DNA from: an uncultured Chloroflexia bacterium
GTDB lineage: Bacteria; Chloroflexota; Limnocylindria; Limnocylindrales; CSP1-4
DNA: 64,000 bases
Direction of reading: 5' to 3'
NCBI GenBank assembly: GCA_963724635.1
Contig: CAVRVI010000001.1
Span: 16,678-80,677, forward strand
The position numbers were made by a program, and so were the translations under genes. Positions within the stretch are counted from its first letter, which is position 1; each line of letters starts with the position of its first letter. The notes under the pieces are model-generated. The model was given only the letters and a program-made list of their open reading frames with translations. It made no database searches and was not told where the DNA came from. Below, one piece after another: positions 39,204-45,967 of the stretch.

Positions 39204-39302
39204 CGGGCCGATTGTCGCACGGCCGGACCTGCCCGCATGGCACGCGCCGGGTACCGTTACGGTCATGCAACGGTCCGGCGCCAGCGCTGGTTCTGGGTGG
39301 TG

Positions 39303-39935
39303 ATGGACACGACCGACACGCTCCGCACCGACCATCACGAGGGCGACGCGCGCCTTGTGGCGGCCCTTGCCCGGGACCTGGACGGCACCTTTCCCGAGCT
39401 CGTCACCGAGCACCAGGACCGGCTCTACTCGATCGCCTTGCGCATGCTCGGCGATCCCCACGACGCCGAGGAGGCGGCCCAGGACGCCATGGTCAAGGCC
39501 TATCGGGCGCTGGCCGGTTATGACGCGACGCGGATCGCCGAGCTGCGACTGCGAGGCTGGTTGGCGACGATCGTCCTCAACGGCTGCCGCACGCGGCTCG
39601 GGCGGCGGGCGGGGCGCGGCCTTCCGCCAGCCTCGCTCGACGACGCCGTGCCGGGGCGGATGGAGCCGCGCAGTCCCGACGGCGGTTCGCCCGAGGCGGT
39701 CGTCCAGCGGCGTGACGAACGGGAGGCGTGGGGAGCCCGCCTCCTGCAGCTGCCACCCGCCTACCGGGCCGCCGTCGTGCTCCGGCACGTCGACGGCCTG
39801 TCCTATCCCGAGACCGCCGCGGCCCTTGGCCGGCCCGAGGGCACCGTCAAGGCCCAGGTCCACCGGGGGATCGCCCTGTTGCGCACGATGCTCGAGGCCG
39901 AACGCCGGTCCGAGCGCCAGGAGATGACCGCATGA
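39303..39935 (+). CDS. ECF RNA polymerase sigma factor
   Basis: LYSIALRMLGDPHDAEEAAQDA (region 2), WLATIVLN, LSYPETA...EGTVKAQVHRG (region 4). Confidence 0.92.
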   Translation: MDTTDTLRTDHHEGDARLVAALARDLDGTFPELVTEHQDRLYSIALRMLGDPHDAEEAAQDAMVKAYRALAGYDATRIAELRLRGWLATIVLNGCRTRLGRRAGRGLPPASLDDAVPGRMEPRSPDGGSPEAVVQRRDEREAWGARLLQLPPAYRAAVVLRHVDGLSYPETAAALGRPEGTVKAQVHRGIALLRTMLEAERRSERQEMTA

Positions 39936-40735
39936 CCACGACTGACCCCACCATCGAGGCCGCACTCGGCGGGCTCGTCGTCCCGGCCCCCGCGACCCTG
40001 CGACCGGGCGTTCTCGTCGCCACCGGACTGGCCGACTTCTACGCCCGGGTGGGATCCCCGATCGGCTCGATCGTCGTGGCCTGGAACGGCCTGGGCGTCT
40101 CGCTGGTCGATGCCGAAGCGGACGACGCCGCGTTCGAGACACGCCATGCCGCCGTGACCGGCCGTCCTGCCTTCCACGCTGAGGACGGCGTGCCCGATCG
40201 ACTCGCCTCGGCGATCGCGCGTCGCCTCGAGGGCGACCGGCGCGTCCGCATCGACCTCGACCTGCGCGGCCATACCCCATTCGAGCGCGACGTGTGGCTG
40301 AAGGCGCTCGAGATCCCCCACGGCGAGGTCCGGCCGTACGGCTGGATCGCCGGGGAGATCGGTCGCCCCCGGGCGGTCCGCGCGGTGGGTACGGCGCTGG
40401 GCCACAACCCGGTCCCGCTCATCGTCCCGTGCCACCGGGTCGTGCGGACGGATGGCACCATCGGGCAGTACTCGCTGGGCGGGCCGGCCAACAAGCGGAC
40501 CATCCTGCGCAGCGAGGGCCTGGACCCCGACGGCCTCGAGCATCTCGCGGCCGCCGGCATCCGCTACATCGGCTCGGACACGACCCACGTGGTGTGCCTG
40601 CCGACCTGCCACCACGCCCGGCGCATCACCGACGCGCATCGCGTCCCGTTCCGCTCGATGCGGGCCGCGGAAGGGGCCGGCTATCGGCCCTGCCACGTCT
40701 GCCGGCCCGACTCGGGAGTCGCGGTCGCGGCCTGA
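39932..40735 (+). CDS. O6-alkylguanine DNA methyltransferase fused to a C-terminal Ada Zn-binding domain
   Basis: VRAVGTAL, VPCHRVV; C-terminal CLPTC...GYRPCHVC; ATGA overlap with the sigma gene. Confidence 0.9.
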   Translation: MTTTDPTIEAALGGLVVPAPATLRPGVLVATGLADFYARVGSPIGSIVVAWNGLGVSLVDAEADDAAFETRHAAVTGRPAFHAEDGVPDRLASAIARRLEGDRRVRIDLDLRGHTPFERDVWLKALEIPHGEVRPYGWIAGEIGRPRAVRAVGTALGHNPVPLIVPCHRVVRTDGTIGQYSLGGPANKRTILRSEGLDPDGLEHLAAAGIRYIGSDTTHVVCLPTCHHARRITDAHRVPFRSMRAAEGAGYRPCHVCRPDSGVAVAA

Positions 40736-40774
40736 CACGCCAGGGCGTATCCTGTGCCCTTGGACCAGACCCCT

Positions 40775-41789
40775 ATGCCAAGTCGCCACCAACCTGCCCC
40801 TGATCGCGGGGCGATCTGGCTCGGCATGCTGGTGCTATACGTGGTCTGGGGCTCCACGTATCTCGGGATCGCGATCGCGGTCGAGACGATCCCGCCGTTC
40901 CTCATGGCGGCGATCCGTTTCGTGCTCGCCGGGCTGATCCTGCTCACCTGGTCGGTCGCGCGCGGGGGACGTTCGTTCCAGGCCCCCAGCCGGCGCGAAT
41001 GGCGCGACAGCGCGATCGTGGGCGCCCTGCTCCTGGGCGGCGGGATGGGCATGGTCGCCTGGGGGGAACAGACGGTGCCGTCGGGGATCGCCGCCCTGCT
41101 CGTCGCGATGGTGCCGGTCTGGATCGCGATCTTCGGGCGCATCTTCCTGGGCGAGCGACTGCCCGCGACTGGCGGTCGCCGGGATCGCGATCGGGTTCGT
41201 CGGCGTGGCCGTCCTCGTCGGGCCGACCGCCCTGGGCTTCACCGGGTCGCTGGAGCCAGCCGGACTCGCGGCCATCATCATCTCCCCCATCTGCTGGTCG
41301 CTCGGCTCCCTGTTCGCCTCCCATCGGGCGAGTCTGCCGCGCCAGCCGCTCGTCGCGACGGGCGCCCAGATGCTGACCGGCGGCCTGGTGCTCGCGGCGA
41401 TGGGAGCGCTGGCCGGTGAGTTCGGGGCATTCGACCTCGCCGCGGTCTCGACCGATTCGTGGTGGGCGCTCCTGTACCTCACGGTCGTCGGCAGCCTGCT
41501 CGCGTTCACCACCTTCGGATGGCTGTTGCGCGTCGCACCACTCCCCCTCGTTGCGACGTATGCCTACGTCAACCCGGTGGTGGCAGTGATCCTCGGGGCG
41601 ATCGTCCTGCAGGAGCCGATCGAGCCCAGGACGATCGTTGCGGGCGCGATCATCGTGTTCGCGGTGGCGCTCATCGTCACGGCGCGCAGCCGGATGCAGG
41701 CCCCGCGCTCGCGCGACACCGTCACGTCTCCGCCAGCACCGTCCGGGTCACCCGTCGAGCCAACGCCATCGCGGTCAGCATCGGGTTGA
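40775..41789 (+). CDS. EamA/DMT transporter (indel near 41170)
   Basis: YVVWGSTYL, PPFLMAAIRF, YAYVNPVVAVILG. Confidence 0.88.
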
Positions 41790-43762
41790 CCCCAAGCCCG
41801 GTCGGGAACAGCGACGTGTCCGCGACGTAGAGGCCGCCGATGGGCGTGTCGTTGCGATCGCCGGCCCGGACCCGTCCGGCCAGGTCGCAGACATGGTCGC
41901 GCGGGTCGGCGCCCATCCGGGCCGTCCCCATCTGGTGGGCGGACAGCACGGTCCCCCGATTCGGGCTGAAATCGAAGACCGCGAGCTCAGCGAGATACCG
42001 CTGGAACGCGGTATCACCACCACCGGCTCCCGCGCGGAACCAGGCCGGCGACGTGCCGGCGGCCATGATGTCGATGGCCCCGCCGGCGCGCGCCATGCGC
42101 GCCATGCTGCCCAGGGCGTGCCGCAGGGTCGCCACACCGGTCCCGTCGAGTCGGTAGTCGATGCGGACGCGCCCCGCCCTGGTCATGGTCGTGCGTCCCT
42201 CGCCCCCGTCACGGGTGACCGCGACGAGGGCGCCGAGATGGCGCAGATCCCCGAGGATCGCGGCGTGCTGCGCGGCGCCCTCCCACGGCACCGCCAGGGC
42301 GACGAGACCGGGGTGCCCCGGAGCCGAATTCGATGACGTAGCCGGCCCGCCCGGGCACGGCGTCCACGAACTGGATCGAGCGGGCGCCCTGCATGGTCCC
42401 GCGCCACAGCTCGACGGGGTCGGGCATCCGGGTCAGGACGCCGGCGACCGGATGGATGCGCAGGTACCGCCCGATGGCCGGATGGCCAAGGCCGCTCCCC
42501 TGGAGGACCGCCGGCGTCCGCAACGCACCCGCCGCGACGACGACCTGCCGGGCGTGGACCCGCAGCGAACGGACCCGAACGCCGCCGGCGGCGGAGGAGT
42601 CCTCGATCGGCTCCCCGGTGACCGGATCCGGCACGAGGGCGAGGCCCTCCACGCCAACGGCGCGCCCACCCTCAAGGAGCACCCGCGTCACGCGGACCCT
42701 CGGCACGATCCGCGCACCCGCGGCGTGGGCCTGCGCGAGGTGGGCGCGGATCCCGCTTTGCTTGGCACCGCGGCGACAGCCGAACCCGCAACTGCCGCAA
42801 TCGTCGCAGCCAGTGCTGTTCCGACGGGTGGGTCCCGCCTCCCAGCCGAGCGCCGCTGCCCCCCGCAGGATGACCTGGTCCTTGGGCGGCACGTACGTCG
42901 TTTGGGTCACGCCCAGCTCCACCTCCAGGGTCGCGACGTCAGCGCCCCACGCCTCGTCGTCGCCGAGGTCGTCGAGGCCGTGCTCGACCCGCCAGGCGTC
43001 GCGGACGCTCGCCGGGGCCGCGATCGTCGTCATCCAGTTGACGAGCGTGCCACCACCCACGCCGGAGCCGGCGAGGAGCGTGGCCGCGCCGTCCCACGTC
43101 GCGAGCAGACCATGGTTGAGGTACAGCCGCGCGAACGCGTCCAGCTCGTTGTCCGGCATGGACGCCTCGTCGACGAATGGACCGGCCTCCAGCACCACGA
43201 CGGAGCGGCCGGCCGCGGCAAGACCGGCCGCCAGGACGCCGCCACCGGCGCCGGAGCCCACCACGACGACATCGGCGTCCAGGGTCATCGGTTCGTCGGG
43301 ATCTCCCTCTGCGAAGGGCAGGACGGTCGGGACGATCGACGTCCGCTCCACCGCGATCGGCGGCCATTCCGCCTGATAGCCGATCGCCGCGTGCCGGCGA
43401 TTCGGCGCGCCGTCCACACCGGGATCGGCGTAGGCCAGGAACGTCAGGAGCGTGCGCAGGCTCCCGAAGGCGGTCCGTCGCTGGGCGACGCGTGAGTGGG
43501 CCCAGCTCAGCAGGTATCGCTCACGGGCGGCTGACGACATGGCCGAGAACGGCGTGGGTCCAGCGCCCAGCGCCGCGTTCGCCGCCCGGGACTCCATGGC
43601 GCGCAGAACCAGTCGGAGCAGCCCCACCTGGCTCGGATCCGCCGCCCGCTCCAGGGCCTGGGTCACGAGCTGCGCGCGTCGTTCGCCGTCGTCGCCGGGC
43701 ACGAAGGTCGTGGCCAGGATGGCCAGCGTCGAGCGCTCGCGCGGGGTCCAGGATGGCGCCAC
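41722..43762 (-). CDS. GMC oxidoreductase, long-chain-alcohol-oxidase-like (indel near 42330)
   Basis: DVVVVGSGAGGG, VLEAG, GSGVGGGTLVNW, SAHQMGTARMG, ADTSLFPT..GVNP. Confidence 0.88.
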
Positions 43763-43975
43763 GGGTCCTCCAGCTCGTCGGTCCGGTCGCGGGAGCGTTC
43801 TCCCTCGGATACAGACCCGATGCGATCGGGTACGGGGCCGTCCGAGCCCTTGTCCCGGCGATCGACGGCTGCCTACGCTCACTGTGCGCCAGCGATGACG
43901 ATCCGTGCTGGTCATATCCGCCGGGCTCGTCCACCGACGGCGCCGCCCGCTCCCGAGCCAGCGAAGGAGTCGCCC

Positions 43976-45967
43976 GTGACCATCGAGGCCAGGCGGGACG
44001 GCGTGCGGCGCCGCCCGACGCGACGGACGGCGGACCCATCCGCCACGGAGCCAGCCTCGGGCTCTCCGGTCGCCCTCCAGGGCGTGATGGCCGACCCCGA
44101 CCTGGGGTCGCCCGCTCCCGCACTGCCCCTGACCCCGGCCCCGCTGGCCCGACACCTCGGCCGCATCCATGATCGTCACCGCCGGGCCAGCGATGGTGCG
44201 GTGGCCACCTACATCCCGCAGCTCGGCCGGGCCGATCCATCGTGGTTCGGGATCGCCGCGGTGACCCTCGACGGTCGCGTTCACGCGGTGGGCGATGCGT
44301 CGATCCCCTTCAGCGTCCAGTCGATCTCGAAGCCGTTGACCTACGGCCTGGTGCTCGACGACCTCGGCGAGGACGCCGTCCGGGCGCGGATCGGGGTGGA
44401 GCCGACGGGCGAGCCGTTCAATGCCATCACGCTGGCCCCGGGCACCGGGATGCCGCTCAACCCGATGGTCAATGCCGGGGCGATCACCGCGGCTGGCCTC
44501 GTCGGGACGCGTGACGGGCGCCCGCCGCTGCAGCACCTGCTCGACGGCTATGCGCGGTTCACCGGTCGCCCGCTCGCCATCGACCCGGCGGTCTTCGCCT
44601 CGGAGCGGGAGACCGGACATCGGAATCGGGCGATCGGTCAGCTTCTGCGCGCCTCGGGCGCCATCGATGGCGACCCGGACCTCGTCGTCGAGACGTACTT
44701 CGCCCAGTGCTCCGTGGCGGTCACCACGGAAGACCTCGCGGTCGTCGCCGCCACCCTGGCCAACGGCGGCGTGAACCCCGTGACCGGGGAGCGGGCACTC
44801 TCGGCGGGCGCGACCCAGGCCGTCCTCGCGGTCATGGCTTCGTGCGGCATGTACGACGGCGCCGGCGAATGGCTCTACGCGGTGGGCCTGCCCGCCAAGA
44901 GTGGCGTGTCTGGCGGCCTGCTGGTCGTCGTCCCCGGACAGCTCGGGTTCGCCATCTTCTCGCCGCCCCTGGATGCCAACGGGAACACGGTCCGTGGCGT
45001 GCGCGTCTGCCGTGACCTCGTGCGCGACCTCGGCCTGCATCCGCTCCGCGGCGACGGCCCGCGACCCGGACCGATCCGGGCGACCCATCGCCTGTCCGAG
45101 ATCAGCTCCAAGCGTGGTCGTTCCCCGGCCGAGCGGGCGGCCCTCGGGAGCATCGGGTCACGCTGTCTCATCGTCGAGCTGCAGGGCGCACTGACCTTCC
45201 TGGCGCCCGACGAGATCGCGGTGGTCGTTGACGAGGCACGATCAGACGCCGAGGGCCTGGACCTGCTGGTCCTGGACATGGGTCATGTGGAGCGGGTGGA
45301 TCCGGCGGCCGTGGACCTGCTGGGCAGCCTGCTGGCCGGTCTGTCGGCTGGGGGCCTCGAGATCGTCGTGGCGGGACGGCATCGGGTCGCCTCGTGCGCG
45401 GCCGCCATCGAGCGGGCCATCGCCCTCGAGGGCGGCGGGCTGCTGCTGACCGCCGACGACCTCGACACCGCGCTCGAGGTCGCCGAGGAGCGCCTGCTCG
45501 CGGCCGCCGATCTCCCGACCATCGCGAGCGTCCCGCTCACGGAACAGGCGCTCGTCCGGGGCCTCGACGACGACGGGCTGCTTGCCCTCGCCGAGCGCCT
45601 CGAGGTGCGTTCCTACCCGCAGGGATCGCGCATCGTCACACGGGGCGATGTCGCGTCCGGGCTGTTCCTCATCGAGCGTGGCCGGGCGAGCGTGACGGTG
45701 GACCTGCCCGGCGGTGGACGACGACGCCTCTCGACGCTGGGGCCCGGGATGACGTTCGGCGAGGCTGCCCTGCTCGATGGCGGGCATCGAACAGCCGACG
45801 TCCACGCCGACTCCGACGTCGTGTGCCGGATGCTCCCCAACGCCGCGTTCGACGCCCTGCTCATCGAACAGCCCGTCGTGGCGGCGACGATCCTGCGCAA
45901 CCTGTTGCGGACGGTCGGAGCGACCGCCGCGCGGTTGACCCGCGAGGTGGCCGTCCTCGCGAGCTAG
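43976..45967 (+). CDS. glsA: Glutaminase with C-terminal STAS and cNMP-binding domains
   Basis: YIPQL, FSVQSISKP, NPMVNAGAI, PAKSGVSGG; then STAS-like LDMGHVERVD and cNMP FGEAALLDGGHRTA. Confidence 0.9.
   Translation: MTIEARRDGVRRRPTRRTADPSATEPASGSPVALQGVMADPDLGSPAPALPLTPAPLARHLGRIHDRHRRASDGAVATYIPQLGRADPSWFGIAAVTLDGRVHAVGDASIPFSVQSISKPLTYGLVLDDLGEDAVRARIGVEPTGEPFNAITLAPGTGMPLNPMVNAGAITAAGLVGTRDGRPPLQHLLDGYARFTGRPLAIDPAVFASERETGHRNRAIGQLLRASGAIDGDPDLVVETYFAQCSVAVTTEDLAVVAATLANGGVNPVTGERALSAGATQAVLAVMASCGMYDGAGEWLYAVGLPAKSGVSGGLLVVVPGQLGFAIFSPPLDANGNTVRGVRVCRDLVRDLGLHPLRGDGPRPGPIRATHRLSEISSKRGRSPAERAALGSIGSRCLIVELQGALTFLAPDEIAVVVDEARSDAEGLDLLVLDMGHVERVDPAAVDLLGSLLAGLSAGGLEIVVAGRHRVASCAAAIERAIALEGGGLLLTADDLDTALEVAEERLLAAADLPTIASVPLTEQALVRGLDDDGLLALAERLEVRSYPQGSRIVTRGDVASGLFLIERGRASVTVDLPGGGRRRLSTLGPGMTFGEAALLDGGHRTADVHADSDVVCRMLPNAAFDALLIEQPVVAATILRNLLRTVGATAARLTREVAVLAS

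Follow-up and report, generated by a model that had tools for sequence, protein, structure and literature searches.

A sigma factor gene coupled to an Ogt-Ada zinc domain protein in an uncultured Chloroflexia bacterium: a possible sigma-based response to alkylation

Organisation of the sigma factor operon

The DNA analysed, called the window below, is a stretch of 64,000 nucleotides from an uncultured Chloroflexia bacterium (GenBank assembly GCA_963724635.1, contig CAVRVI010000001.1, positions 16,678 to 80,677 of the forward strand). Its subject here is a gene for an extracytoplasmic function (ECF) sigma factor, followed directly by a gene for a protein, the partner, that combines an alkyltransferase domain of the Ogt type with an Ada-type zinc domain. 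A first-pass annotation of the window had described an overlap of the two genes at the sequence ATGA, an N-terminal extension, an Ogt domain with the motif PCHR and a C-terminal four-cysteine Ada domain in the partner, with no AraC-type helix-turn-helix, and the lack of a separate anti-sigma gene. All of this was borne out, the domain assignments by Pfam searches and alignments. The genes on either side of the pair encode a divergently transcribed S-adenosylmethionine (SAM)-dependent methyltransferase upstream and an EamA transporter downstream, and there is no separate anti-sigma gene among these neighbours. The features of the pair are the following.

39265-39293, plus strand: ECF-type promoter, with a TGCAAC -35 element (39265-39270), a 17-nucleotide spacer and a GGTTCT -10 region (39288-39293)
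39303-39935, plus strand: ECF (group IV) sigma factor gene, 210 amino acids, with sigma-2 and sigma-4 domains only
39932-39935, plus strand: ATGA overlap of the sigma stop codon with the partner start codon, suggesting translational coupling
39932-40735, plus strand: Ogt-AdaZn protein gene, 267 amino acids; the product is proposed to repair DNA and to act as an anti-sigma factor that senses alkylation
39932-40039, plus strand: N-terminal extension of the partner (residues 1-36), the remnant of a class I (ZAS) anti-sigma domain, lacking HxxxCxxC
40040-40522, plus strand: Ogt alkyltransferase core (residues 37-197), from PF01035 and the match to 4BHB
40430-40432, plus strand: active-site Cys167 of the PCHR motif, within the Ogt core
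40550-40711, plus strand: Ada-type zinc methyl-acceptor domain (residues 207-260), from PF02805 and the alignment to 1ADN
40595-40597, plus strand: Cys222, the counterpart of Ada Cys38 in the alignment to N-Ada

The sigma factor matches Pfam Sigma70_r2 with 57.3 bits and Sigma70_r4_2 with 57.8 bits, and the NCBIfam model TIGR02937 (sigma70-ECF) with 76.6 bits, for which the cut-off is 42.9. The presence of these two domains only, in a protein of about 200 residues, makes it a member of ECF group IV.

In the partner, residues 116-196 match PF01035 (E-value 2e-29), and the protein scores 93 bits against TIGR00589, compared with a cut-off of 46. Residues 207-260 match PF02805, Ada_Zn_binding (E-value 3e-9; 37.3 bits, with the cut-off at 23). 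The best relative of solved structure is the Mycobacterium tuberculosis OGT (4BHB), of which residues 4-153 align to residues 37-195 of the partner (E-value 1.5e-24), leaving residues 1-36 as an extension. The zinc domain aligns to residues 31-76 of N-Ada (1ADN); the cysteines of its CLPTC...CHVC motif (residues 222, 226, 254 and 257) fall on Cys38, Cys42, Cys69 and Cys72 of Escherichia coli Ada. When 66 diverse full-length members of the family are aligned, Asn159, Cys167, His168, Arg169, Lys188 and Glu195 are invariant, as are the four zinc cysteines, while Tyr136, Arg150 and Tyr180 are conserved in at least 90%. The Ogt domain includes a DNA-binding helix-turn-helix; no match to an AraC/HTH_18 domain was found in the protein with Pfam. 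Against the NCBIfam Ada model PRK15435 the partner reaches 102.9 bits, the cut-off being 345, and it is thus not an Ada of the E. coli type. Judged from these matches, it is a bona fide Ogt joined to a bona fide Ada zinc domain, and alkyl transfer is predicted.

A model of the partner calculated by AlphaFold2 from the 66 homologues has a predicted local distance difference test score (pLDDT) of 95.2 and a predicted template modelling score of 0.88. Foldseek matched it to C-Ada (1SFE, with a TM-score of 0.80 on the target) and to 4WX9, and matched the zinc domain to N-Ada in its complex with DNA (1U8B, probability 1.00); it returned no solved structure that unites the Ogt and N-Ada folds in one protein. 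The Ada_Zn domain of the partner is the sole one in the window genome. The other genomes of the genus, with one exception, also have one each, located in the Ogt-AdaZn protein, and no canonical Ada was found in the genomes of the genus.

The promoter of the sigma gene and a predicted second target

The first-pass annotation had pointed out a GCAAC-N17-GGTT motif ahead of the sigma gene (GCAAC at 39266-39270, GGTT at 39288-39291). The motif is indeed there, and each of the 25 related loci for which upstream DNA is available has it at the same spacing before the sigma gene: 20 from Chloroflexota, the window included, and five from Actinomycetospora, where the -35 element has the variant GCCAC. 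The consensus is TGCAAC(C/G)G-N-(G/T)GTTCT, and GC(A/C)AC-N17-(G/T)GTTCT covers all 25 loci. In the window, the sigma ATG follows GGTTCT after 9 nucleotides; in relatives the start codon comes after 8-9 nucleotides, or after 7 nucleotides, with GTG as the codon, in Actinomycetospora. Many of the sampled Actinomycetota loci have TG(C/A)AAC-N17-GTGTTCT followed by ATG. Identical spacing in 25 of 25 loci puts the motif far beyond chance, and from this comparison GCAAC-N17-GGTTCT is judged to be a real promoter of the ECF type. An AAC-type -35 element and a GTT/CGT-type -10 element in front of the sigma factor's own gene are what is expected of an autoregulated ECF promoter, and we predict that it is one. 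A ribosome-binding site would not fit between the promoter and the sigma start; the fixed distance from promoter to start codon suggests that the mRNA of the operon is probably leaderless, or nearly so.

A position weight matrix (PWM) trained only on the sigma promoters was used to scan the whole 2.92-Mb assembly. The sigma promoter of the window has the top score of the genome (25.9 bits). A site of 23.5 bits on contig C10 has the same 8-nucleotide spacing to an ATG and stands before a second alkyltransferase gene:

C10, 27398-27925 (to 27962 with the promoter), minus strand: stand-alone ogt, encoding a canonical Ogt of 176 amino acids with PCHR

The stand-alone Ogt has neither the N-terminal extension nor the zinc domain. 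Orthologues with 64-73% identity are present in seven congeners, and each of them has this promoter in the corresponding place (15.8-31.1 bits). The upstream neighbourhoods differ between these genomes, from which it seems that promoter and ogt have moved together as a cassette. In the window genome and two congeners (L034 and L039), the gene adjoins tRNA-Gln(CTG), lying downstream of it.

Searched with the strict pattern TGCAAC-N17-KGTTCY, the genomes of the genus give one or two matches each, at the sigma and ogt promoters, compared with about zero for the reversed control, and no other conserved target. No sites were found for alkA, alkB or aidB, and the predicted regulon apparently consists of alkyltransferases only. 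When 17 Actinomycetota genomes were searched strictly for the leaderless pattern, four gave a match, in each case at the promoter of the sigma operon itself, and no further target came up. The occurrence of the same promoter, with the same spacing, before the stand-alone ogt here and in seven congeners leads us to predict a regulon of two alkyltransferase operons, that of the sigma factor and that of the stand-alone ogt. The earlier suggestion of a sigma-based adaptive response fits this second target, and nothing else in the analysis supports a sigma-based response to alkylation so directly.

A few other sites were set aside. The second-best PWM score (25.4 bits, on contig C13) was taken as a chance match, as the site lies inside an open reading frame (ORF), has the GCCAC variant and is not followed by a properly spaced start codon. 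Strict-pattern matches in the genomes G003, G005 and G019 (L069, L072 and L073) were rejected as regulon members, being unconserved and lacking the proper spacing to a start codon. In the congener G001, there are two identical copies of the sigma promoter (C1:416404 and C8:43096), apparently with the whole operon, either by duplication or by redundancy of the assembly.

Upstream of the -35 elements, no Ada-box-like element common to the sigma and ogt promoters was found, which argues against an activator that binds an Ada box. The same result bears on a more general role of the partner as a co-activator. Methylated E. coli Ada activates transcription by contacting sigma-70 and the alpha subunit; in a similar way, the partner, once methylated on its zinc cysteine, might gain affinity for DNA or for the holoenzyme of sigma factor and RNA polymerase and stimulate transcription, no inhibition being involved. 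The zinc domain is of the kind that makes Ada an activator, all four of its cysteines are invariant, and a DNA-binding helix-turn-helix could be supplied by the Ogt domain. Nevertheless, we regard co-activation as quite improbable. The partner has no helix-turn-helix of the AraC type; apart from the promoter itself, no conserved sequence lying upstream of the -35 element or across it is common to the sigma and ogt promoters; and the N-terminal domain of relatives to which the partner's extension is homologous is an inhibitory anti-sigma domain, as described below.

Co-inheritance of the sigma factor and its partner

Full-length homologues of the partner are present in approximately 26 of the 151 sampled Chloroflexota genomes (about one in six) and in 23 of the 201 sampled Actinomycetota genomes (about one in nine). 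An ECF sigma gene lies directly upstream in every Chloroflexota and Actinomycetospora locus with upstream DNA, and in 22 of 22 sampled Actinomycetota loci. Taking both phyla together, at least 34 of 41 sigma-partner pairs have the four-nucleotide overlap. In a tree of sigma factors, 38 of the 47 partner-linked sequences, that of the window among them, form one clade with a Shimodaira-Hasegawa-like approximate likelihood ratio test (SH-aLRT) support of 98, and none of the 19 other ECF sigma factors of the window genome belongs to it. The remaining nine partner-linked sigma factors group with three long-branch ECF sigma factors of the window genome in an adjacent cluster that is weakly resolved.

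In one locus (L099), the sigma and partner genes share a reading frame and are parted only by a TAG codon. Apparent sigma-Ogt fusions (P0236, P0211, P0162 and P0237) were discarded as Rosetta-stone evidence; in-frame and out-of-frame stretches alternate in them, indicating that they are frameshift artefacts of error-prone assemblies.

The N-terminal extension and its relation to anti-sigma domains

The extension of the partner contains two short helices in the AlphaFold2 model, formed by residues 6-13 and 23-30, with pLDDT values of 80-95. Its identity in one alignment (A3) is 0.46, compared with 0.44 for the N-terminal domain of Ogt, meaning that the two are equally conserved; the C-terminal tail of the protein is not conserved. 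A library-wide HMMER search with the partner yielded 217 representative clusters at E < 1e-30. Among the homologues are longer proteins (P0167, P0168, P0172 and P0186) in which a PF13490 zf-HC2 domain (24-28 bits, cut-off 22.2) precedes the Ogt and Ada_Zn domains. The HxxxCxxC motif is seen in 10 of 16 long forms, and the two long forms for which there is upstream DNA have an ECF sigma gene directly before them and overlapping them.

Profile-profile alignment with hhalign places residues 6-30 of the window protein on the segment directly after the HxxxCxxC motif of the homologues that bear zf-HC2. By this alignment, the extension is what is left of the C-terminal part of a class I anti-sigma domain. 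Its pattern AP..L...V...L presumably corresponds to the end of helix III and to helix IV of domains of the RsiW type. The window partner itself gives no match to PF13490 and has no HxxxCxxC motif, i.e., it does not contain a class I ZAS domain as such. Among the 71 representative clusters with both Ogt and AdaZn, the zinc motif is kept in only 11 and lost in 60, so the window has the truncated form, which is that of the majority.

A weak likeness was also noticed between the extension and the sigma factor. In one alignment (A4), MAFFT paired L..AL..L...AP..L...VL of the partner's extension with L...LA.DLDG.FP.LV..H of the sigma N-terminus. The likeness was sufficiently consistent to upset the alignment and may reflect nothing other than the amphipathic nature of two helices.

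The distribution of the zinc motif is relevant to the kind of signal that a regulatory partner might sense. Redox-sensing anti-sigma factors use a ZAS motif of the kind found in the relatives, and the partner has a second zinc site, of the Cys4 type. It might thus be an anti-sigma factor of the RsrA type, with a cysteine-zinc site responding to thiol oxidants or to electrophiles in general, in which case alkyl transfer would be incidental. We consider this very unlikely. The ZAS zinc site has been lost from the window protein and from the majority form (60 of 71 clusters), both alkyl-acceptor sites are invariant, and the predicted targets comprise alkyltransferase genes only and no genes of thiol stress.

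Proposed mechanism

We propose that the partner inhibits the sigma factor, and that it is at the same time the damage sensor and a repair enzyme that its own alkylation inactivates. The binding and the release are read from gene arrangement and homology, and we hold the proposal as a whole to be somewhat probable. The sigma factor and the partner would be made in fixed proportion from a single, probably leaderless mRNA that the sigma factor itself activates, as suggested by the four-nucleotide overlap. In the undamaged cell, the partner would hold the sigma factor through its N-terminal helices, the remains of the ZAS-type anti-sigma domain. During repair of DNA it would take alkyl groups onto itself irreversibly, from O6-alkylguanine to Cys167 and from methylphosphotriesters to the zinc-bound Cys222, as in Ada. 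The alkylated partner would then change or lose stability and let the sigma factor go; either Cys167 or Cys222, or both, may be the trigger. Free sigma factor would read promoters of the form TGCAAC-N17-(G/T)GTTCT, in front of its own operon and of the stand-alone ogt of the genus, and with these two targets the cell would replace the alkyltransferase consumed. Newly made, unalkylated partner would turn the circuit off again.

A bolder version, which we put forward tentatively and find somewhat doubtful, is that a suicide repair enzyme serves as a consumable anti-sigma factor. Each alkyl group removed from DNA, whether by Cys167 or by the zinc-bound Cys222, would irreversibly use up one inhibitor and free one sigma factor, so that lesions would be counted stoichiometrically. 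Such a system, with a minimal leaderless regulon of alkyltransferases only in this Chloroflexota lineage, would replace Ada altogether, and the final helices of the ancestral anti-sigma domain would be all that it needs.

Several considerations weigh against an inhibitory partner. The group of ECF sigma factors with an adjacent alkyltransferase is listed in the literature as of 'unknown mechanism' (PMC8999054). The window protein lacks helices I and II and the zinc site, and the 30 or so residues left of the anti-sigma domain may be too few to hold a sigma factor. Both N-terminal helices are packed confidently onto the body of the protein by AlphaFold2, suggesting that they may be structural and not a free arm for binding the sigma factor. 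The assembly is about 61% complete, and further targets may therefore be missing from the predicted regulon. Finally, autoregulation of the promoter and co-transcription of the enzyme would be equally expected if the partner were no more than cargo of the operon. The sigma factor would in that event be controlled in some other way (at the level of transcription, by another protein or through low, constitutive positive feedback), and the partner would do nothing but repair, being simply the chief product of the operon, with its extension a structural relic.

This explanation agrees with the absence of the HxxxCxxC half of the anti-sigma domain and with the packing of the helices, and a regulon made up of repair genes only requires no sensing by the partner. 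It does not account for the strict adjacency and the four-nucleotide overlap being kept across two phyla, for the inheritance of a sigma lineage together with its partner, or for the complete anti-sigma domain at the same position in relatives. The extension is conserved like a folded domain, in contrast to the C-terminal tail, and a self-activating sigma promoter needs a brake, for which the locus offers no other candidate. We consider it unlikely that the partner is cargo. The first-pass annotation had suggested that one protein may be both repair enzyme and regulator of the sigma factor, and this role of the partner as the sigma inhibitor has gained comparative support from the homologues with zf-HC2, the homology of the extension and the inseparability of the pair. 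Set against it is the loss, in the window protein, of the zinc-finger half of the domain.

Neighbouring genes and intergenic sequences

Downstream of the pair lies a gene for a transporter:

40754-41789, plus strand: EamA/DMT transporter gene, with Pfam EamA on both halves, 18-40 nucleotides downstream of the Ogt-AdaZn gene

In the window, this gene is broken into two frames that overlap (40754-41419 and 41205-41789) by an apparent extra base in a short run of C near 41160-41170, whereas relatives, such as L002, have a single frame; the split is either an assembly error or a sign of a recent pseudogene. Among Chloroflexota, 22-23 loci (L001-L023 and L032) have an EamA gene directly after the Ogt-AdaZn gene and in the same orientation, with identities down to 51-57%; the Actinomycetota loci have none there. 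The transporter gene may be a third member of the operon peculiar to this lineage, presumably transcribed together with the other two. Further along, an ORF for a GMC-oxidoreductase C-terminal domain (41722-42291, minus strand) abuts a 959-amino-acid ORF on the same strand (42209-45088).

Two conserved boxes lie upstream of the sigma promoter in the window and in many congeners. The first, GATTGTCGCA at 39211-39220, reads TGCGACAATC on the minus strand, 7 nucleotides before the ATG of the methyltransferase gene, and looks like the extended -10 element of another leaderless gene. The second, GGTACCGT(A/T) at 39250-39258, is a half-palindrome of TACGGTACCGTA and may be an operator of the divergent methyltransferase gene. 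The spacing between the two boxes varies from 28 to 41 nucleotides. Genome-wide, GGTACCGT(A/T) is not enriched, with 35 copies for about 100 expected. Both boxes were rejected as a shared Ada-box, as they are found only beside the divergent methyltransferase gene and at a variable distance from the -35 element.

Comparison with known systems

A 2022 review lists, as group ECF122, ECF sigma factors encoded beside a 6-O-methylguanine DNA methyltransferase, with an 'unknown mechanism' (PMC8999054). The review (PMC8999054) takes the group from the classification of Casas-Pastor et al. 2021 (PMC7826278); an example is WP_057211282.1 of Cellulomonas sp. Root930. As far as the main text of PMC7826278 goes, the pairing of ECF sigma factor and methyltransferase is not discussed. 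A full-text literature search brought up no paper on an alkyltransferase acting as anti-sigma factor or on an ECF-based adaptive response. The novelty, which the first-pass annotation had left to be checked, is smaller than it implied: the association of the genes is catalogued (PMC8999054). For its mechanism, the search found no study.

The analysis shows a real and clearly delimited locus that is widespread and whose gene association was already known. To this the window adds a precise definition of the promoter, a second target, conserved and itself an ogt, a design that is likely leaderless, and evidence that the partner in its common, truncated form keeps only the tail of the anti-sigma domain. 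If the partner does inhibit the sigma factor as proposed, the adaptive response to alkylation would have been invented twice, the second time by wiring the two suicide modules of Ada through sequestration of a sigma factor by an anti-sigma factor and not through an AraC-type activator. Anti-sigma factors are known to be inactivated by proteolysis, by partner switching and by oxidation; covalent self-alkylation would join these. The proposal would also explain ECF122, a group listed without a known regulator. The system looks directly testable in a heterologous host, with its two genes, a promoter defined from at least 25 aligned sites, a predicted second target and two candidate trigger cysteines that can be mutated. 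The pair could serve as a compact biosensor of alkylation.

As for the likeness to known systems, that to ECF122 rests on the published description, in which an ECF sigma factor lacks a recognisable separate anti-sigma gene and has a conserved neighbouring gene for a 6-O-methylguanine DNA methyltransferase. The window pair has just this gene context, a neighbouring methyltransferase and no separate anti-sigma gene. It differs in coming from Chloroflexota (a metagenome-assembled genome resembling Limnocylindria), and the published summary mentions neither the Ada zinc domain nor the anti-sigma remnant, the promoter or the second ogt target (PMC8999054).

Stand-alone alkyltransferases of the Ogt/MGMT type, such as the M. 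tuberculosis OGT (4BHB) and C-Ada (1SFE), share the fold and the full active-site constellation with the partner, to which the window protein adds the 36-residue N-terminal extension, the C-terminal Ada zinc domain and an obligatory coupling to a sigma factor. Class I ZAS anti-sigma factors (zf-HC2 proteins such as RsrA, RsiW and ChrR) are, like the partner, encoded directly after the sigma gene and overlapping it; relatives of the window protein have the HxxxCxxC domain, with the final part of which the window extension shares homology. Unlike them, the window protein is soluble and lacks the zinc-binding helices, its 'sensor' would be two suicide modules of DNA repair, and release would take place by covalent self-alkylation and not by proteolysis or disulfide formation.

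With E. coli Ada and with AdaA and AdaB of Bacillus subtilis, the partner shares the two suicide methyl-acceptor modules, one a Cys4-zinc site for phosphotriesters and the other a PCHR site for O6-alkylguanine. The output is likewise more alkyltransferase, and self-methylation is presumed to be the signal. In contrast to Ada, the order of the modules is reversed, Ogt preceding the zinc domain, and there is no helix-turn-helix of the AraC type. The output would pass through the release of a dedicated sigma factor where Ada acts as an activator that binds the Ada box, and the regulon of the window system apparently comprises alkyltransferases only.

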